The position numbers and the translations under genes are program-made. A stretch of 53,542 nucleotides of DNA from Actinomycetota bacterium (lineage in GTDB: Bacteria; Actinomycetota; Acidimicrobiia; Acidimicrobiales; AC-14), in contig VAWU01000030.1 in assembly GCA_005888325.1 (NCBI GenBank), positions 80,349 to 133,890 of the forward strand. Direction: 5' to 3'. A model generated the notes under the pieces. It did no database searches and had not been told where the DNA came from. It saw only the letters and a program-made list of their open reading frames with translations. Below are positions 4,076 through 33,097 of the stretch, piece after piece. Each line of letters starts with the position of its first letter. The stretch's first letter is position 1.

Positions 4076-7000
4076 CTAGGTCGACGACTCGCGGAGCGCC
4101 TCGGCGCCGCGGCGCACGGCCTGCATTCCCAGCCGCTCGGCTTCCGCGACGATCGAATCGATCAGCGGGCGAACGGCGTCGCGGTCACCGGTTGCGTTCC
4201 GCGCGAGGAGCATTCGCACGTACTCGAGCCGCGATCGCGTGTGGAACGGGGCCGCTCCCAGCCGGGCGTGGCGAGCGATCGCATCTTCGAGGTGGTCGGC
4301 GGCTTCGTCCCAGGCTCCTCGTGTGAGGGCGAGTATCCCGAGGTAGTGCGACACCGATCCCATGAACACCACGGCGAACGTGAGCAGGATGATCTGCTCG
4401 CGGTGGGGGAGAAGCAAGGCGAACAACACGTCGGCGCGCCGGCTGTCACCGAGTCGCGAACAGATCTCCGCGAGCATCGCCAGCGTGACCGACCGAAACA
4501 GGTCATCGGGTACGTCGGCGAAATCTGCCGCAGCAATCGCGTCGAACTCGAGGCGAGCGCTCTGTTCACGGCCTGACTCGACGTCCGCCAGGATTCGTGC
4601 CGCTCGCAATGGGAGATCGATGGACCCCGTCGCGGCCACAGCGATCGCCCGGAATTCCTCGATGCGACCCTGCTCGCGGCGGAGTATCGCGAGCTGGGCG
4701 CCCATCATCTGCAAAGCCACCGTTCGGCCCGCGCGCTGGCCGATCTCGAAGCCTTCGTTCACGGTCACCTCGGCGTCGGCGAAGCGTCCCTCCAGGATGG
4801 CTCGCATGGCGGCGTAGAGGGTGGTGGTCCACTGGTAATAGGGCGCGTGGAGCTCGCGGGCCGCGGCCTCGAGCGCCTCTGCATCTGCGTCGGCGCGCCT
4901 GACATCGCCGAGCTCCATCAGATCGACGAACCGGAACGAGAGCGCCTGCATCACCAGCTCTCGCTGATCGAGCGCCTGTGCGAGCTCCAATGCCTCGTTG
5001 GAAACGGCGAGCCGGTCGCGCATGTTCGCGAACTGCCACCGCGCCATGCGCCAGAACAGAAGCGCCTGTACGAGCGTGGCGGGATCGTCGGTGCGGCGAG
5101 CCATCGCGAGTGACTCGTCGGCGAGCCGTTGTCGCCGATCGGTGTCGCCGAACACGAAGAGCTGTTGCGCGAGCGAGCCGAGCAGCTTGACCCGAAGCGC
5201 GGAGTCGCCGCGGTCGAGCACGTCGAGGGCCTCCTCGAGCAGCTTCACGAGGACGTCGTCGACGAGCCCCTGCTCGGTCCACCACGGGCGAAAGCCGGCT
5301 CCGCCGAGCCCGAGCGCCGCGTTTGCGAGTCGGATCGGGTCGCCGATCCGGCGGGCGAGCTCCGCGGCCTCAAGAAAGCTCGCGCGGGCGCGCTGGACCT
5401 CGCTCGTGCGCCATGCTGCGTCACCAACCGCACGGAGCAGGTCGTACCGCCGCGTGACGTCACCCGGTGCGGATGCCTCGAGCACTTCGAGTGCCATCAG
5501 GTACTGACGGCTGGCGTCCTCGTACGCGAGGAGATCCGTCGATCGATCGCCCGCCTGCCACGCGTAGTCGATCGCCTTGGCGGCGTCGCCGAAGCCGGCG
5601 GCCTGCCAGTAGTGGTACGCGAGCTCAGCCAGCGGCGGCTCGAACGCACCGGTGAAGAGCGCCTCGAGCGCGTCGCCGACGCGGCGGTGCAGTCGGGCGC
5701 GACGTGTGGTCGTCAGCCCTTCGTAGAGCGTCTGGCGCACGAGCGCATGCGAGAAGACGTACACGCCAACTGTGCCCCGCATCTCCGCGACGAGACCGGC
5801 GTGCACCGCGTCATCCAGCGTCTCGAGCAGACTCTCCTCGTCGAGGTCCATGACTGCAGCGAGCACGTCGAACCGGAACTCGCGGCCGATCACGGCAGCC
5901 GCGGCGAGCACTCGGCCCGCGGGCTCGATGAGGCGAGCGACGCGCTGGGCCACCACCCCCCGCACCCCACTGGGAACCTCGAGGCGACTGAGCCCCGCAT
6001 CGGACACCCATCGACCACCCTGTTCGTGGATGGCGCCGCTCTCGGCGAGGTGGCGCAGCATCTCACCGATGAAGAACGGGTTGCCTTCCGTTCCCTCGCA
6101 CAGCGTTCGCGCGAGCGCCGATGTCCGACCATCCGGCTGTCCCGCGCCCGTCGTCGTGTCGAGCAGTGCCGTCACATCCGCATCACCGAGCCCGGTCAGC
6201 CGAATTCGGCTGACGGACTGCTCGCGACGATCAGCGTCTCCGCGAATGGCGTCGACAAAGACACACTCTCGTCGCGACACGTCGCGAGCACGACGAGCCC
6301 CGTCAGATCCGCGTGGCGTGCCAGATGGCGGAGCAGGAGCAACGTCGCCCTGTCGGCCCAGTGGAGGTCGTCGAGCACGAGCAGTACCGGCGCACCCCGC
6401 CTCAGCTCCATCAGGAATGCCGCGACCGCCTCGAACAGCCGGAACCGTTCCGCGTCGGCATCGCTCCAACGGGGCTGGGCGAGGCCCGGCACCCGATCAC
6501 CCAGCTCGGGCACCAACCGGCCGAGCTCGGTGACGAAGCGACCCAACCGGTACTGAAGCTGGTCGGCGGGAAAGACGCGGAGGTAGCTGCTCAACGCCTC
6601 GGCGAATGGCTGATAGGGCCGCAGCACCTCCTCGTCGCATCGACCGAACAGCACCGTCGCGCCCCGCTCGTGGACCGCCGCGGCGAACTGCGCAGCGAGG
6701 CGCGACTTGCCGATCCCCGGTTCACCGCTGATCAACACCATACGGGCTCCGATAGCGTTCGGCGTTTCCCACTCGACGTCGAGCTCGGCCAACTCCGCGT
6801 CCCGACCCACGAACACACCACCGTCGCTGCTCGCGAGCGGCGCGGGCAACGGGACCTCACCGCCGACGAGGAGGTCGCGCGGGCGTCCCGATCCCGACTG
6901 CAGCGGCGGAAATTCGGTGGGAAGCTCAGGGTGGCAGAGCTGGTAGACGTGCTCGGGGTGCAGCAGCCCACGGAGCTCGTGCACTCCCATGTCGCGCAAC

Positions 7001-14112: not shown

Positions 14113-15105
14113 TCACTGCAGACTCGGGCGGCGAGGCTCGAGCCCGGCAGCGCGGTACGCGGCGTCGATCACCCGCATGTTGGCGATCGAGTCGGCGGGA
14201 CCGGTGAGGATCGGCTCCCCGCGGAGCACCGCGCCGGCAAAGGCGCGCAGCTGGAACATGTATGTCGGCTCCCGCGAGGCGCGCGGCTCGGTGCGCTTCT
14301 TGCCGTTGGTGCTGACGGTCACGCGGCTGAAGTAGTGCGGCGCGTAGGGATTCAAGACTCGCAACTCGCCCTTGTCACCCTCGACGCGGGCGCCGAGCGA
14401 CAACAGCCTCGGCGACAGCATCGACGCGGTCACCTTGCCCGTCGCCCCGCCGGCGAAGCGCATGTCGGCTTCCATCCATCTGTCGATCCCGATCGAGCGC
14501 TCGCGGGCGGAGGCTCCGACGACCGTTGGCTCCTCACCGGCGAGGGTGCGCAACAGGTGGATCGTGTAACACCCGACGTCCATGGTCGACCCGCCCGCGA
14601 GGTCGAGCTGCCAGCGGATGTCGCGGCGCGACGGCAACGGAATGATCATCCACGTCTCGACGTGGCGGACCGTGCCCAGCTCGGCGCGAACGATCTCGAG
14701 GATGCGGTCGATCAACGGGTGGTATCGGTAGTGGAACGCCTCCATCACGACGCGTCGGGAGCGGTCGGCCACGGCCGCGACCGCCTCGGCCTCGTCGGCG
14801 TTCGCGGTGAACGGCTTCTCGCAGAGCACGTGCTTGCCCGCCTCGAGCGCGGCGATCGTCCACCTGCCGTGCAGCCCGTTCGGCAGCGGGTTGTAGATCG
14901 CGTCGATGCTCGGGTCGTCGATCAGGGCCTGATAGCCGTCGTGCACGTTGGGGATCCCGTGCTTGGCGGCGAAGCTCTCGGCCTTCGCCCGATCGCGCGC
15001 CGCGATCGCACGGACGTCGATCTCGTCGAGCTTGCGGGCGGGCTTGATCAGCGCCGCCGGCGCGATCTTCGCGGCGCCGAGCACGCCGATCCGCACAGGT
15101 GCCAT
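14113..15105 (-). CDS. Gfo/Idh/MocA family oxidoreductase
   Basis: An internal ATG at 15105 gives MAPVRIGVLGAAKIA (Rossmann) ...EKPFTANADEAEAV. The listed ORF carries a spurious N-terminal extension. Confidence 0.7.
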   Translation of the reverse strand: MAPVRIGVLGAAKIAPAALIKPARKLDEIDVRAIAARDRAKAESFAAKHGIPNVHDGYQALIDDPSIDAIYNPLPNGLHGRWTIAALEAGKHVLCEKPFTANADEAEAVAAVADRSRRVVMEAFHYRYHPLIDRILEIVRAELGTVRHVETWMIIPLPSRRDIRWQLDLAGGSTMDVGCYTIHLLRTLAGEEPTVVGASARERSIGIDRWMEADMRFAGGATGKVTASMLSPRLLSLGARVEGDKGELRVLNPYAPHYFSRVTVSTNGKKRTEPRASREPTYMFQLRAFAGAVLRGEPILTGPADSIANMRVIDAAYRAAGLEPRRPSLQ

Positions 15106-15198
15106 CGGCCCATCCTGCCTCAAGCGCCGGCGATGAGTCCTGGTCGCTCGAGCCGTCAGATGGGAGAGACTCACCTCATCCACTCCCTGGAGGAACCG

Positions 15199-15621
15199 AT
15201 GCCCTTTCACCCGTACCTGTACTTCGGTGGCAACTGTCGCGAGGCCTTCACCCGGTACCAGGAGATCTTCGGTGGCGATCTCGTGCTGCTGGCGCTGAAG
15301 GACGCGCCATCGGACGAGCCGGTGCCCGCCGCTCAGGCGGATCTGATCATGCACGCCGCGTTGAAGTTCGACGACAACCTGCTCATGGCCTCCGACGACC
15401 CGACCACCGACAGCTTCGGCCCGGTGCAGGGGATGCAGGTCAACTATGCAGTCGCCGACGTCGACGAGGCGAAGCGGGCTTTCGAGGCGCTCGCGGACGG
15501 CGGCGAGATCACGCTGCCGATCGGCGCGACGTTCTGGTCGCCGATGTTCGGCATGTGCGTCGACCGGTTCGGGACGCCCTGGATGGTCAGCGCCGAAGCA
15601 CCCGGCGAAACCGTCGGCTGA
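15199..15621 (+). CDS. VOC/glyoxalase-fold protein (PhnB-like)
   Basis: An RBS (ggagga) precedes the ATG at 15199. The protein begins MPFHPYLYFGGNCREAF... Confidence 0.6.
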   Translation: MPFHPYLYFGGNCREAFTRYQEIFGGDLVLLALKDAPSDEPVPAAQADLIMHAALKFDDNLLMASDDPTTDSFGPVQGMQVNYAVADVDEAKRAFEALADGGEITLPIGATFWSPMFGMCVDRFGTPWMVSAEAPGETVG

Positions 15622-15706
15622 CCGTCTCAGGTTGGCGGCCCGCGTCGATAGAATTGTGCCGAGAACGCGACGGAAGCCCGCGATCTGAACGACGACGGAG
15701 GGGCTG

Positions 15707-16126
15707 TTGAGCTGCAGGAACTGCGGAGGCGAGTTCTCCGCGGAACGGGCCGAGCTGGGATACGACTACTGCACGAAGCCGGAATGCGTCGAAGCGTGCC
15801 TGGAGCCGCTGAACGTCGTGGCGGTGTCGGTCAACAAGGCGGCCGACCAGTACGTCCTCCGCGAGCATCTCCGCCTGCCGAAGCACATCACGGAGAGCTC
15901 GATCGACGCGGGGCCGGGCTCGCTCGGCCTTCGCTTCAGGAAGCCGACGACACCGCGGCGGCCCAGGAGCACCTCGGACGCCATCGCCGAGCTCGAGAGA
16001 GAGCTCGAGACGCAGCTCGCCGGTGAGCACGATCCCGCGCGGCGACGGAAGCTGGTGAACGACCACAACGCCAAGCTCCGCAGGCTCAACATTCGCTACC
16101 GCCGGATCGCCCAGCGCCGACCGTAA
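15707..16126 (+). CDS. hypothetical protein with an N-terminal CxxC...CxxxxC zinc ribbon and a basic C-terminus
   Basis: Start is TTG, RBS ggagggg; the protein begins SCRNCGG...CTKPECVEAC. Third codon positions are GC-rich. Confidence 0.45.
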   Translation: MSCRNCGGEFSAERAELGYDYCTKPECVEACLEPLNVVAVSVNKAADQYVLREHLRLPKHITESSIDAGPGSLGLRFRKPTTPRRPRSTSDAIAELERELETQLAGEHDPARRRKLVNDHNAKLRRLNIRYRRIAQRRP

Positions 16127-21270: not shown

Positions 21271-21306
21271 GCGACCGAACCGCCGGCGCCGTGACACGAC
21301 GCCGCC

Positions 21307-21961
21307 TTACGGATCATCTGTTGGTGCAATCGCCGACGTTCGCAGTCGGTCGCGGGCGTGGGTGAGGCCGACGGCAAGCACGATGATGCCTGCCCCCGGG
21401 ATGATCCACGGCGGGAAGAGGTTGGCGACGAGCGCTCCGATTCCGACTCCCCTCGTGACGCGCTTGAGCGCCAAGAGCACGATCGCCACCAACGTCGCCG
21501 CGATGAGCACGAGCAGGATCCCCTTGTCGGTCAGATTGTGGCCCGACGTGTATCCCGTACGCGCCGTGCCGAGCGCGTCGGCCTGCGTATCGCTCCAGTT
21601 GTCTTTCCCGATCGCGTTCACCACTCGCACGTTGCCGACCTACGGCCCGTCGGCCACCGGGGACGGCCCACAGGATGACGGCGACGAGGGCGACGACCGG
21701 GGGCACCACTTCGGCGGATTCCAGATGCCCGGCGCCGTGGCCCTTGCGCCCCGGGAAGATCTGATCCATCACCAGTCCCCCGACCACGCCGACCACGATG
21801 AAGGCGGCGATCGGCCACCAACGGCGCAGGATCGAGCGAGCCTCGATCGGTCCACGAGGCTCCCTCAGTCGAAGACGGATCGAGGGGACGACGGTCTTGC
21901 GTGCCAGTAGCCAAATGCAGATCAGCAACGCCGCCATCAGGGCGTACAACACGACGACCAC
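21307..21961 (-). pseudogene. multi-TM membrane protein whose reading frame is broken near nt ~21640 (frameshift or assembly error)
   Basis: The N-terminal half (21961 down to ~21645) has GC-rich third codon positions and three TM helices, including VVPPVVALVAVILWAVPG. The C-terminal half continues in another frame (21630..21307) with two further TM helices (GILLVLIAATLVAIVLLAL, IIPGAGIIVLAVGL). Confidence 0.45.
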
Positions 21962-22004
21962 CCCAGTCCAGAACGCGATCAGCAGTGAGACGATATCGCG
22001 GCGC

Positions 22005-26189: not shown

Positions 26190-26299
26190 GCCCGACCGCC
26201 GTCATTGCCCTCTGCCGCATCTCGACTCCTTAGCAGTGGCCACTCTACCGAGTGGTGACGGAAATGATCTGAGCCCCATTCCGGGGTCGATCCGTCGGG

Positions 26300-27780
26300 T
26301 CAGGAGCGCCGAGGCCTCGCCGGAAGCTGGTTGATCGCGTGATGGCCGGCGCCCCAGAGGTGCTGGACCGCGTAGGCGCGCCACGGGCGCCACCTTCGGG
26401 CTCGTTCGGTCAGGGCAGCAGGCGAGCTCGGTAGTCGCCGCGTCTTCGCCCCGAGCCGGACACCCAGATCGGTCGGAAGAAACGCATCGGGATCGCCGAG
26501 CGCGCGCATCGCAATGGTCGAGCGCGTCCACGGTCCGACTCCCGGAACGTCGGCGAGTCGTTCGAGCGCGGTGCCCCACTCACCACCCACGCTGAGATCG
26601 ACCTTGCGTCGGCGAGTGCCTGGGCGAGCGCGATGAACGTGCGACGCCGGCTGCCGGGCATCGCCAGCGTGGTGGGGTCGACCTCGGCGATGGTCGTGGT
26701 CGCGGGGAAGAGATGCGTGAGACCGCCGCTGGGGTCGTCGATCGGCTCACCGGACGCGACGACGAGCCCGCCCGCGAGTGTGCGTGCCGCGGCGGTGCTG
26801 ATCTGCTGTCCCAGCACGACGCGGAGCGCGAGCTCGTGCTCGTCGACCGTCCGCGGGACCCGTGGACCGGGTGACGCCTTGATCAGCGGTCGCAGAGCAG
26901 GATCCTTGGCCAGCGCGGCATCGACTGCGACCGGGTCGGCATCGAGGTCCAACAAGCGTCGGCAGCGCGCGATCGCAGTGGAGAAGTCCCGCATGTCGGT
27001 GAGGGTGAGCCGGCAACTGACGTGGTCGCGCTGTGGTGAGAGGGCGACGATCCCCGACCCGAACGGCAGGCGCATCGTGCGCCGGTAGGCACCGTCGCGC
27101 CACTCTTCGACCCCGGGCACAGCCGTCGCCGCGAGGTGGCCGAAGAGGCTGTCGGGCCAGAGGGGCGATCAGAACGCGAGCCGCACCGTCACGGACCCGG
27201 GCGTCGACGGCGCCCTGACCTCGGCCGCTGCCCGCAGCGCGGAGGGCGACGTCGCGAACACCTCGCGGACGGTGTCGTTGAACTGCCGGATGCTGCCGAA
27301 TCCCGCCGCGAAGGCCACATCGCTCATCGAGAGGACCGTCGTCTCCAGCAGCACCCGAGCGGCCTGCGCTCGTTGCGCGCGCGCGACCGCGACCGGTCCC
27401 GCCCCGAGAACCGCGGTCATCTGACGCTGAAGCTGCCGGCGGCTGTATCCGAGGCGGTGGGCGAGGCCGTCGACTCCCTCGCGATCCACGATTCCGTCCG
27501 CGATGAGACGGAGCGCGCGCGCGACGAGGTCAGATCGTGTGTCCCATTCGGGCGAGCCCGGGGCGGCGTCGGGACGGCAGCGCTTGCACGCACGGAACCC
27601 GGCTGCCTGTGCGGCGGCCGCGGTGGGCAGGAACCGCATGTTCTCGGGCTTGGGCGGAGCGACCGGGCAGCTCGGCCGGCAGTAGATGCCCGTCGTGACC
27701 ACCGCGCTGACGAACTGTCCGTCGAAGCGGCCGTCGTTCGAGAGCACGGCTCGCAAGCACCGCTCGGTGTCCCGGAACAC
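26300..27780 (-). pseudogene. alkA: ada-alkA fusion: an Ada Zn-finger/AraC-HTH regulatory domain plus DNA-3-methyladenine glycosylase II. It is interrupted by an in-frame TGA (27169-27171) and a frameshift near ~26600.
   Basis: The Ada N-domain (CRPSCP...AraC HTH) ends at a TGA. The same frame continues as SPLWPDSLFGHLAATAVPGVEEW, which aligns with the E. coli AlkA N-terminus PPYDWSWMLGFLAARAVSSVETV. The HhH-GPD part (GVGPWTRSTIAMRALGDPDAFLPTDLGV) sits in a different frame, after LAQALADA. Confidence 0.65.
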
Positions 27781-27871
27781 GGCCCCAGTGTGCCTGCGCG
27801 GGGGCGAGCTTCTCTAGCGGAAATGCGACATCGAGTCGACGGGTGGTCCGCTGCGTCCGGCTTGGTGACGA

Positions 27872-29630: not shown

Positions 29631-30735
29631 ATGCGCACAGCGGCCACTGACCTCATCGGCATCGACGTCCCCATCTTCGGCTTCAGCCACTGCCGCGACG
29701 TCGTCGCGGCGGTGACCAACGCAGGCGGGTGCGGCGTCCTCGGTGCCGTCGCGCACACCCCCGAGCAGCTCGACATCGACCTCCGCTGGATCGAGCAGGA
29801 GGTGAAGGGAAAGCCGTTCGGCGTCGACCTGCTGGTGCCCGAGAAGTTCGCGGGCGCCGACGAGGGCGGTCTCGATCGCAGCGAGCTCGTCAAGCTGCTT
29901 CCCGAGGAGCACCGGCACTGGGTCGACGAGCTGCTCGCTCGCTACGACGTGCCACCTGCGCCCGCGGATCGACCCGAAGAGCATGGCGCCGCTCCTCGAC
30001 GTGCTGTTCGCACACGACACACACCTCGTCGCATCGGCGCTCGGGCCGCCGCCCGCACACTTCATCGAGCGGGCCCACGCCGCCGGCATCCCCGTCGCCG
30101 CGCTCGCAGGAGCGGTGGTGCACGCGGAGCGCCACGTGCGTGCCGGCGCCGACCTCATCGTCGCCCAGGGAACCGAGGCGGGCGGTCACACCGGGATGAT
30201 CGCCACCATGGTGCTGGTGCCCGAGGTCGTCGACGCGGTCGCGCCAGTGCCCGTCCTTGCCGCGGGAGGGATCGCCCGCGGTCGCCAGCTCGCGGCGGGC
30301 ATGGCTCTGGGGGCCGACGGCGTGTGGTGCGGCTCCGTGTGGCTCACGACCGACGAGGCCGAGACGCCGCCCTCGGTGAAGGACAAGTTCCTCAAGGCGG
30401 GCCTGGGCGACACCGTGCGGTCGCGCTCGATGACGGGCAAGCCGGCCCGGATGCTGCGGACGGCGTGGACCGACGAGTGGGAGAGAGCCGACGGCCCCGG
30501 TCCCCTCCCCATGCCGCTCCAGCCGATGCTCATCAGCGACGCGATGCGTCGCATCCATCGCGTCGCCTCGAAGGAGGGCACGGGCGCGAACGATCTCGCC
30601 ACGTACTTCGTCGGCCAGGTCGTCGGCAGCATGAACACGGTCCGGCCTACCCGCCGAGTCGTCCTCGAGATGGTGGAGGAGTTCATCGACACGGTGGAGC
30701 GGCTCGACAACCTCGTGAGCGAGGAAGACGGATGA
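29631..30735 (+). pseudogene. nitronate monooxygenase (NMO) whose frame is broken near ~29960-29970 (a 1-nt indel in a CCC run)
   Basis: The N-terminal part (29631..~29960) is in frame 0: DVPIFGFSHCRDVVAAVTNAGGCGVLGA...KPFGVDLLVP. The C-terminal part (from ~29965) is in frame +1: IDPKSMAPLLDVLFAHDTHLVASALGPPP...AQGTEAGGHTG...VLAAGGIARG. Confidence 0.6.
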
Positions 30736-30789: not shown

Positions 30790-30826
30790 GTCGTAGTTAG
30801 CCGTTTTCAGGACGGCTAACTACGAC
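30790..30826. promoter_or_regulatory. perfect 15-bp inverted repeat with a 7-nt loop (GTCGTAGTTAGCCGT tttcagg ACGGCTAACTACGAC)
   Basis: The palindrome sits between the NMO stop (30735) and the start of the first Gfo/Idh/MocA gene (30851). It is relatively AT-rich and no U-tract follows. Confidence 0.5.
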
Positions 30827-30850
30827 GCGAAGCGAGGCGCGAGGCACGCC

Positions 30851-31933
30851 ATGAGTGATCTGAATGCAGTCGTCGTCGGCACCAGCTTCGGCTGTCTCAC
30901 GCACGTTCGGGCCTTGCGCGCCGCGGGCTTCACCGTCAGCGCGCTCGTGGGACGCGATCCCGGGCGGACCCTCGAGCGGGCCAAGCGGTTCGACGTGCCG
31001 GTGGGCACGACATCGTTGGACGAGGCGCTCGCGCTCCCTGGTGTCGACGCGGTCACGATCGCGACACCGCCGCACACCCATGCGCCGATCGCGTCGGAGG
31101 CGATGCGCGCGGGAAAGCACGTCCTGTGTGAGAAGCCGTTCACGCGGGACGCGGCGGAAGCGCGCGCACTGCTCAAAGTGGCCCAGGACGCGGGAGTCGT
31201 CCACCTCCTCGGTACGGAATTCCGCTGGGGTACCGGGCCCGCGCTGATGGCCCGGGTGGTACGCGGCGGCGACATCGGCGAGCCCCGTCTGGCGACCTTC
31301 CTGCTGCACATCCCGCTCCTCGCCGATCCGGCGAGCGAGGTTCCCGAATGGTGGTCCGACAAGAGCCAGGGCGGGGGCTGGCTCGGCGCGCACGCCGCGC
31401 ACGTCGTGGATCAGGTGCGATCCACGCTGGGTGAGATCGCCGGCGTGAGCGCGTCGCTTCCCTCGTTGTCGGACCGGGCGTGGACGGCCGAAGACACCTA
31501 CGTCGTGCACTTCCGGACACACGGTGGCTGTGCCGGGATCATGCAATCGTCGGCGGCCGACCGCGGACCGTTCCTCATCACCTCACGCATCGCGGGCACG
31601 AAAGGCACGGTGTGGACGGAAGGCGATCGGGTTCAGATCGCCGACGCCTCCGGCCCCCGGGACGTGCCGGTTCCTGACGACCTGGTGACCGGACCGCCCG
31701 AACCACCGCCCGCCGACCTCCTCGTCACTGCGTACGACCTCCTCCACGCCACGGGGATCGACATCGGCCCGTACACGCGGCTGGCGGAGACGTTCCGCGA
31801 CCTCATCCTCGGCCGCGCGCCGGCCGAGGACCCCGCCCCGGCGACGTTCGTCGACGGCGTGGCGGTCATGGAGGTGCTCGATGCCATCCGCCGGGCGGCT
31901 GCCGAACGGAGCTGGGTTCCCGTCGATGGGTGA
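30851..31933 (+). CDS. Gfo/Idh/MocA family oxidoreductase (tandem paralog 1)
   Basis: Motifs include VVVGTSFGCLTHVRALRAAGF and EKPFTRD. Confidence 0.7.
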   Translation: MSDLNAVVVGTSFGCLTHVRALRAAGFTVSALVGRDPGRTLERAKRFDVPVGTTSLDEALALPGVDAVTIATPPHTHAPIASEAMRAGKHVLCEKPFTRDAAEARALLKVAQDAGVVHLLGTEFRWGTGPALMARVVRGGDIGEPRLATFLLHIPLLADPASEVPEWWSDKSQGGGWLGAHAAHVVDQVRSTLGEIAGVSASLPSLSDRAWTAEDTYVVHFRTHGGCAGIMQSSAADRGPFLITSRIAGTKGTVWTEGDRVQIADASGPRDVPVPDDLVTGPPEPPPADLLVTAYDLLHATGIDIGPYTRLAETFRDLILGRAPAEDPAPATFVDGVAVMEVLDAIRRAAAERSWVPVDG

Positions 31934-31984
31934 GCAGCGTCGGACGGACCTCGACGACCGGCGGGCGCGGGACGGGACGCGCGG

Positions 31985-33097
31985 ATGATCGGTGCCGTCG
32001 TGGTCGGCACGGGATTCGGCTGCATCACCCATGTGCGGGCGCTTCGGGCGGCCGGTTTCGATGTCGTCGCGGTCGTCGGACGTGATCCGGCGCGCACGGC
32101 GGAGAGAGCCGCGCGCTTCGGTGTGGAGAACGCATGCACGTCGCTCGCGGCCGCGCTCGAGCTGCCCGGTGTCGACGCCGTCACGATCGCGACACCGCCG
32201 CACACACACGCCGAGCTCACGCTCACGGCTGTCGCCGCGGGTCGGCACGTGCTGTGCGAGAAGCCGCTCGCCCGCGACCGGGCCGAGGCCGTCGAGGTCC
32301 TCGGGGCGGCCGAGGCCGCCGGCATCGTCCACCTGCTCGGGACCGAGTTCCGTTGGGACCCCGGACAGGCGACCTTGGCCCGGGCCGTCGCCTCGGGGCT
32401 CGTCGGCGAGCCGCGGTTGGTGACGGCCATCCTGCACGTGCCCGCCCTCGCCGACCCGGTCGCGCAGGTCCCGCCGTGGTGGGCCGATGTCTCGAGCGGG
32501 GGAGGGTGGCTCGGGGCGCACGGTTCGCAGGTGATCGACCAGGTCCGCGTGGCCCTGGGCGAGTTCGCCGGCGTCAGCGCATCGCTCGTCCGTGTCCGCG
32601 GCGCGGCGATGACGGCTGAAGACTCGTTCGTCGTGCACTTCCGGCTGAGATCGGGTGTCGTCGGAGTGCTGCAGAGCAGCGCCGCCGACTGGGGTCCCTA
32701 CATGATCGAGACCCGCATCGCCGGGAGCGCGGGCACGGCTTGGATCGACGGCATCAGCGCCGCGGTGTGGGTGAGCGACGCGACCGGCACCCGACGGCTG
32801 CCGATCGGCGACGACCTTCCGCAGCTGCAGCGTCCCGAGCCGCTGCCGGCCGGCGTGTTGCATACCGCGTACGACCACATGATCGCCCACGGCCTCGATC
32901 TGCCTCCGTACACGCGGCTGGCCGAAGCGTTCCGCGACCGGATCCTCGGGCGGCCTGTCGTGGACGACCCCCGTCCGGCCACCTTCGTCGACGGCGTCGA
33001 GGGCATGGCCGTGCTGGACGCCGTCCGCCTGTCGGCATCCGAAGGTCGCTGGGTCGACGTCGAGGCCGCGTCTACCGTGGAGGCGATTGGGCGGTGA
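31985..33097 (+). CDS. Gfo/Idh/MocA family oxidoreductase (tandem paralog 2)
   Basis: It is collinear with the upstream gene and similar over the whole length (VVVGTGFGCITHVRALRAAGF...EKPLARD). Confidence 0.7.
   Translation: MIGAVVVGTGFGCITHVRALRAAGFDVVAVVGRDPARTAERAARFGVENACTSLAAALELPGVDAVTIATPPHTHAELTLTAVAAGRHVLCEKPLARDRAEAVEVLGAAEAAGIVHLLGTEFRWDPGQATLARAVASGLVGEPRLVTAILHVPALADPVAQVPPWWADVSSGGGWLGAHGSQVIDQVRVALGEFAGVSASLVRVRGAAMTAEDSFVVHFRLRSGVVGVLQSSAADWGPYMIETRIAGSAGTAWIDGISAAVWVSDATGTRRLPIGDDLPQLQRPEPLPAGVLHTAYDHMIAHGLDLPPYTRLAEAFRDRILGRPVVDDPRPATFVDGVEGMAVLDAVRLSASEGRWVDVEAASTVEAIGR

Follow-up and report, generated by a model that had tools for sequence, protein, structure and literature searches.

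Probable recent decay of an adaA-alkA fusion gene in an uncultured soil actinobacterium

Intact adaA-alkA fusion genes join a methylphosphotriester-sensing Ada N-terminal domain and an AraC-type activator to a 3-methyladenine DNA glycosylase II within one protein. In Rv1317c of M. tuberculosis (alkA, or ada/alkA), the order is Ada zinc domain, AraC helix-turn-helix (HTH), AlkA_N, and HhH-GPD, over ~490 aa. The AdaA of Bacillus subtilis is a stand-alone protein of ~210 aa that natively consists of the first two of these domains, the Ada zinc domain and the AraC HTH, and has AdaB as its partner. In E. coli, ada and alkA are separate genes, and the C-terminus of Ada is an O6-methylguanine methyltransferase domain rather than AlkA. 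The adaA-alkA gene fusion of M. tuberculosis is accompanied by a separate ogt (PMC5751216), and the operon partners described for adaA of M. tuberculosis and Streptomyces are alkA and ogt rather than alkB (PMC2790896). Decay of the fusion gene is also on record. Specifically, a natural amber allele of ada/alkA (Trp79>TAG) occurs in Haarlem isolates of M. tuberculosis and in M. bovis AF2122 (Nouvel et al. 2007, PMC1891112), and it has been proposed to act as a mutator or, citing E. coli, to yield a truncated, constitutively active Ada (PMC1891112). No report of an ada/alkA pseudogene in M. leprae turned up in a search of the literature.

The locus described here lies on the minus strand of the window, as the whole 53,542-nt stretch of DNA that was analysed is called below. 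It follows the domain order of Rv1317c, but its reading frame is broken twice. Its features are as follows.

26300..27780, minus strand: whole adaA-alkA fusion pseudogene, 493 codons once repaired
27780-27778, minus strand: start codon GTG, opening a 203-codon ORF
27780-27169, minus strand: first ORF, 203 aa, with Ada_Zn_binding and HTH_18
27568..27759, minus strand: Ada zinc-binding (methylphosphotriester sensor) domain, residues 8-71, PF02805
27229..27465, minus strand: AraC-type helix-turn-helix DNA-binding domain, residues 106-184, PF12833 and PF00165
27171-27169, minus strand: in-frame TGA (lesion 1), CGA (Arg) in relatives
26842..27189, minus strand: AlkA_N domain, repaired residues 198-313, PF06029
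26607..26608, minus strand: 1-bp deletion (lesion 2) at repaired Gly392, GAC GGC AAG to GAC-GC AAG
26410..26606, minus strand: out-of-frame tail of ~65 codons, the upstream frame after the deletion, ending at TGA 26412-26410
26303..26606, minus strand: C-terminal part of the HhH-GPD glycosylase domain, in the other frame, placed by translation and alignment to PDB 1diz
26302-26300, minus strand: original stop TGA of the fusion gene

The first ORF encodes a well-preserved sensor and regulator. The Ada_Zn_binding match covers profile positions 2-65 of 65 (Pfam PF02805, E=2e-29), and the translation keeps all four zinc-binding cysteines, C34 and C38 in CRPSC and C65 and C68 in CKRC. The same part of the protein matches the N-terminal domain of E. 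coli Ada (PDB 1u8b and 1adn; E=2e-19 over Ada residues 4-132), and the helix-turn-helix is recognised by PF12833 (HTH_18; E=8e-19, profile positions 1-79 of 80) and by PF00165 (E=4e-7). Past the TGA, the frame continues as SPLWPDSLFGHLAATAVPGVEEW and matches AlkA_N in Pfam (E=3e-32). With the stop bridged, this match extends to the full profile over residues 198-313 (positions 1-118 of 118; the repaired protein matches PF06029 with E=6e-34), which places the TGA ~6 residues inside the AlkA_N domain rather than between two genes. The original prediction, in which the Ada domain ends at the TGA and the same frame runs on into AlkA_N, is borne out, and its pairing of FGHLAATAVPGVEEW with LGFLAARAVSSVETV is reproduced in the alignment to E. 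coli AlkA (1diz).

After ...FIALAQALAD, homology moves to another frame, reading KVDLSVGGEWGTALERLADVPGVGPWT and onwards until the TGA at 26302-26300. This stretch contains the HhH motif LADVPGVGPWT and an Asp codon, GAT (26470-26468), which corresponds to D438 of the repaired protein and is aligned with D238 of E. coli AlkA in the 1diz alignment. D238 is the catalytic aspartate of the E. coli enzyme; the equivalents of both D238 and W218 (1diz, 1mpg) are present in the window DNA. E. coli AlkA residues 14-273 align to repaired residues 211-477 (1diz, E=8e-33), and the NCBIfam AlkA model (PRK10308) aligns to residues 201-478, in both cases in a single stretch that spans the two lesions. The score for the NCBIfam AlkA equivalog, 155, is below the cut-off of 229, and the window gene thus ranks as a member of the AlkA family rather than as an equivalog. 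In a tblastn search with the repaired protein, the locus is matched by two HSPs that lie in different frames and overlap at 26602-26629. A chance resemblance can be set aside, because an intact protein from metagenomic data, P0001, shares 98% identity with the repaired translation over 485 aa. No RNA family was found by Rfam within the window.

In its ancestral state, the gene encoded Ada and AlkA in one continuous frame, like Rv1317c of M. tuberculosis, as the original prediction had supposed. Each of the 120 best homologues listed is a single protein, 460-558 aa long, in which Ada, HTH, and AlkA_N domains occur together, and the best 80 genome loci, including those of Actinomadura, Streptomyces, Amycolatopsis, and Pseudonocardia (65-70% identity), match query residues 1-488 continuously. 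Separate ada and alkA orthologues with the same boundaries, which would have spoken for two genes from the outset, were not found in the comparison with these homologues. The closest homologues from isolates are only 65-70% identical, and the nearest relatives are metagenomic, all with uninterrupted ORFs: P0001 (98%, contig L081), P0003 (91%, L083), and P0002 (90%, L082). The first of these is particularly close, since L081 shares 99.4% nucleotide identity with the window and its ORF is intact over 493 codons. At the DNA level, then, the window holds the Ada, HTH, AlkA_N, and HhH-GPD parts of a Rv1317c-type fusion. The one uninterrupted reading frame of that family is missing, owing to the TGA at 27171-27169 and the 1-bp deletion at 26608/26607, which makes the locus a pseudogene descended from the AdaA-AlkA family and not one of its functional members.

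Exact-sequence look-ups of the three ORF fragments returned no match, as would be expected if the source record gave none of them a protein accession. The flanking proteins, TML90569 and TML90570, have consecutive accessions, a hint that the locus may already count as a pseudogene at NCBI. A single pseudogene, rather than an adaA gene and an alkA gene, is the appropriate annotation for the fragments.

Taken as a whole, the locus is very probably an actinobacterial adaA-alkA fusion gene that fell into decay only recently, and contigs of the same population bear on each of its lesions. The flanking LLM oxidoreductase, flotillin, and hemolysin-III proteins were found by exact sequence in many metagenome contigs. 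Ten conspecific contigs (L088-L097; 99.4-100% nucleotide identity) were obtained through the exact LLM oxidoreductase protein, and L099 was added by a single metagenome pattern scan with the deletion-site pattern.

The frameshift is the better documented of the two lesions. After ...ALAQALAD, where the frame switches, the window reads GAC-GCAAGG against GACGGCAAGG in L081, L082, and L083, one G of a GG pair having been lost between 26608 and 26607; the missing G that the original prediction had proposed for this GG run is thus confirmed by alignment to three relatives. The same deletion is present in six other conspecific contigs (L088, L089/L098, L090, L094, L095, and L099), and among conspecifics the G is kept only in L081. 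Each of the six has its own assembly or sample accession, and no fewer than two assembly styles are represented (there are MEGAHIT-style k141 contigs, CRIT18-1 scaffolds, and one JGI contig); elsewhere in the gene, they carry differing combinations of SNPs. Some of the ENA or Logan assemblies may share reads with the sample behind the metagenome-assembled genome (MAG), but at least the JGI contig, L099, stems from a different project. Because it recurs in different assemblies and on different SNP backgrounds, the 1-bp deletion is authentic and is an older, common allele in the population. The locus thus has an intact orthologue in a close relative (L081), and its deletion is reproduced in other sequence data. 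In L088, L089, and L090, the gene is called as a 456-aa product (5531-6901) made up of Ada, AlkA_N, and the out-of-frame tail.

The HhH motif and D438 both lie 3' of the deletion, so that no product of the upstream frame contains them. The remaining 96-codon ORF would hold the HhH motif and the Asp without the rest of the domain, and glycosylase activity is confidently predicted to be abolished, because the motif and the catalytic Asp have been put out of frame. With the TGA, the product would be a 203-aa protein holding only the Ada_Zn_binding domain and the AraC HTH. This AdaA sensor/regulator half is intact and might still work. The inactivation of alkylation repair that had been put forward for the gene as a whole would accordingly apply to the glycosylase half, with its HhH motif and Asp predicted to be out of frame, and not to the AdaA half, with its four cysteines and HTH intact.

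The evidence on the in-frame TGA is of a different kind. The window has TTC TGA TCG where L081 has TTC CGA CCG in the nucleotide alignment, and lesion 1 is a C>T transition on the coding strand that turns Arg204 into a stop. CGA stands at this site in ten other conspecific contigs and in L082 and L083. None of the 10 other conspecific contigs covering the site has TGA, which is private to the window, and L090 equals the window over 1751 bp except for that one base (27171). Unlike the deletion, then, the TGA is not reproduced in other data (0/10); it rests on one consensus sequence and would be a private mutation of very recent date or else an error in that consensus. Of the two readings that the original prediction had offered, authentic lesions or consensus errors, the first holds for the frameshift, found in six other contigs, and either may hold for the TGA. 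The TGA and the Pro>Ser change directly beside it (27168, CCG>TCG) are unlinked, the latter being a common polymorphism that also occurs in L090, L091, L094, L095, L097, and L099. At position 27195 nearby, three states are seen, namely T, C, and, in the outgroups, A.

Two further private differences bear on how the consensus should be read. The NMO-family gene (nitronate monooxygenase, PF03060) at 29631-30735 on the plus strand lacks 35 bp (ACGACGACACGTCGGGAGGGGGAATCGGTGGCATG) at ~29964 and is frameshifted; the gene is intact in six conspecific contigs (L088-L093, 379-aa ORF), and the deletion, private to the window like the TGA, may be genuine or may have arisen in assembly. On the minus strand, 29 nt are missing at 21639/21640 relative to scaffold L098, breaking the frame of a gene for a 227-aa predicted membrane protein (~21300-21990). 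L098 itself has a 10-N gap exactly at 21640, beside a short CCTGTGGG repeat, and the position looks like a hard-to-assemble spot. A GC3/ORF heuristic combined with Pfam, applied to 20 pairs of neighbouring ORFs, gave no sign of a further split domain and missed the 35-bp and 29-bp deletions. The clean assembly that this screen would suggest is contradicted by the conspecific comparison, which shows both. Because two other private frame-breaking deletions lie within 6 kb, the MAG consensus is not beyond doubt for private features, and the window's private differences may include assembly artefacts. The case shows how conspecific metagenome contigs can tell an authentic lesion from one that may be an artefact when no reads are at hand.

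Against this background, it is possible, if somewhat doubtful, that the TGA alone is an artefact or a minority variant and that the true genome carries the frameshift-only allele with its 456-aa product. The restriction of the TGA to one contig, the difference of L090 from the window at that base only within the gene, and the imperfect consensus suggested by the two other private lesions all speak for such a reading. Substitution errors, however, are rare in short-read consensus sequences, and CGA>TGA is a common spontaneous transition; moreover, a further nonsense mutation would be neutral in a dead gene and would be expected sooner or later.

Substitution patterns place the decay in time. 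Relative to L082 and L083, dN/dS is 0.04-0.06 in the Ada part and 0.15-0.17 in the AlkA part. Because these long-term values are equal for the window and for intact L081, the decay is recent, the gene having been under purifying selection until shortly before. The window differs from L081 by 21 substitutions and one indel over 3452 aligned bp; 17 of the substitutions, and the indel, fall within ada-alkA, which makes up 42% of that length (binomial P=3e-4). Eleven of these 17 substitutions are non-synonymous (the nonsense change included) and six are synonymous. In the AlkA part, the comparison gives a dN/dS of ~0.76 (eight non-synonymous and four synonymous changes), a value that fits relaxed constraint although the counts are few and recombination confounds it. 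Two contigs illustrate the latter. L093 equals the window down to 27203 and then shows 21 differences in 165 bp (its match covers window 27900-27037), and in L092 the Ada part differs at 32 positions over 591 bp (window 27900-27310), although its flanks are ~99.6% identical. These patterns indicate recombinant or imported alleles within the population, and part of the excess divergence may stem from recombination rather than from relaxed selection.

A rival reading is a functional fission, in which the 203-aa AdaA or the 456-aa product would be kept as an alkylation-sensing transcription factor, possibly a constitutively active one, and only the glycosylase half given up. The four zinc cysteines and the AraC HTH are intact, the TGA sits almost exactly at the domain boundary, and the upstream motif described below and the start region are unchanged; the same idea has been offered for the truncated Ada of M. 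tuberculosis (PMC1891112). The Ada part is also the more strongly constrained, with its low long-term dN/dS and, within the population, one non-synonymous and two synonymous changes, which are, however, too few for statistical power. In addition, the 53-kb window holds no Ada-regulated target in the form of ogt, alkB, or a second alkA, and the TGA is private and shows no sign of selection. Such a fission is accordingly considered unlikely. The 203-aa product does share both domains and nearly its length with B. subtilis AdaA; unlike that native protein, it would be the by-product of a nonsense mutation, with a putative function.

A related and quite improbable proposal is that of a maintained polymorphism, in which the population sheds AlkA (and earlier shed alkB) while keeping an AdaA-only sensor/regulator, the alleles coexisting through recombination. 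Beyond the intact Ada half, it has no positive support. Were it true, both alleles would persist either because losing the base-excision repair of alkylated bases modulates the mutation rate or because the truncated Ada is constitutively active, and the amber alleles of ada/alkA in M. tuberculosis and M. bovis would have a counterpart in a free-living organism.

That both lesions are sequencing or assembly errors in an organism with an intact fused gene is very improbable: the window does come from a metagenome-assembled contig with other private frame-breaking indels nearby, one of them at another assembly's N gap, and the TGA is in no other contig, but the deletion recurs in six contigs that differ in assembly, in pipeline, and in SNP background, and comparable short-read metagenome assemblies recover the intact allele (L081) and the neighbouring genes without indels. 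Programmed recoding, in which TGA read-through or selenocysteine insertion plus ribosomal frameshifting would yield the full-length protein, is rejected, because all relatives have in-frame Arg (CGA) and Gly (GGC) codons at the two sites, no slippery heptamer or homopolymer is present at GAC GCA AGG (GACGCAAGG), and TGA is the ordinary stop of 15 of the 19 genes checked; the open, conserved frames on both sides of each lesion are equally expected of a young pseudogene, and a simple indel is all that distinguishes the deleted allele from the intact one at that site.

The preferred reading, recent decay of a fusion gene, extends to the gene's former neighbour. In the closest relatives outside the population, alkB (2OG-Fe(II) oxygenase, 229-238 aa) lies directly after ada-alkA (L082 and L083, 90-91%; L086/L087, 80%), and its start overlaps the ada-alkA stop in all of these, an arrangement that suggests translational coupling. 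It is missing from the window and from all conspecifics. The features concerned are the following.

L083 3130-3819, L082 2417-3106, and L086 1712-2428: alkB in relatives
26262..26320, minus strand: junction at which ~770 bp of L083 (the last alkA codons plus the 229-aa alkB) are replaced by 59 unalignable bp
27812..27834, minus strand: upstream motif TCGATGTCGCATTTCCGCTAGAG, ~50 nt before the start codon and intact in the window

The 59-bp junction stretch supplies the present C-terminus and stop of the window gene. Among more distant relatives, one at 77% has ogt downstream and one at 79% has no partner. The partnership with alkB is apparently restricted to the window's nearer relatives, because tblastn found no alkB within 4 kb of ada-alkA in the best 80 genome loci. 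Parsimony on L082, L083, L086, and L087 suggests that alkB was lost here rather than gained elsewhere, and that this loss came before the other changes.

A three-step course of decay can be proposed on this basis. First, alkB, coupled to ada-alkA in the nearest other relatives, would have been lost in the ancestor of the population. Next, one G would have been lost from the Gly392 codon, shifting the frame ahead of the HhH motif and catalytic Asp and abolishing the glycosylase; this allele now predominates in the population, with an intact allele still circulating. Finally, CGA would have mutated to TGA at codon 204 on an already dead background, trimming the product to a 203-aa, AdaA-only protein. 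The order of events, like the loss of enzyme activity, is a reconstruction from sequence comparison. If it is right, a widespread soil actinobacterial population would largely lack an inducible 3-methyladenine glycosylase, having earlier lost alkB, while the intact allele persists. These losses may affect alkylation tolerance or mutation rate, as has been proposed for the ada/alkA mutants of M. tuberculosis (PMC1891112).

Compared with the described systems, the arrangement differs from that of M. tuberculosis in that the downstream partner in the closest relatives is alkB, not ogt, and in that the window population has no partner. The amber allele of M. tuberculosis and M. bovis is likewise a natural nonsense allele of the same fusion gene segregating within a species. 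Its stop, however, is at codon 79, inside the Ada part, whereas the window's is at codon 204, at the Ada/AlkA boundary. The window's stop furthermore sits atop an older frameshift, unlike the Mycobacterium allele, and the host is an uncultured soil actinobacterium. The window case is thus a further, free-living example of known ada/alkA decay, differing in its stop position, its added frameshift, and its lost alkB partner; it is a case of ordinary gene decay, and the current understanding of the Ada response is not challenged by it.

The upstream motif TCGATGTCGCATTTCCGCTAGAG is identical in all conspecifics and near-identical in L082-L085. At about -50, it also occurs in distant genera (L031, L045, L047, and L078), and a variant, GTCGCAAAACCGCCAGA, is found in L005 and L050. 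Its reverse complement (GCGGAAATGCGAC) resembles the Ada box of E. coli, AAAGCGCA. The motif (also written TCGATGTCGCATTTCCGCTAG) may be regarded as a candidate actinobacterial Ada operator or promoter element.

Elsewhere in the window, three paralogous GFO/IDH/MocA oxidoreductase genes are encoded at 30797-33097 (plus strand) and 14113-15765 (minus strand), two of them adjacent and in the same frame, and a rhamnosidase gene is present at 3-2777. Together, these genes suggest a sugar-catabolism neighbourhood unrelated to ada-alkA.
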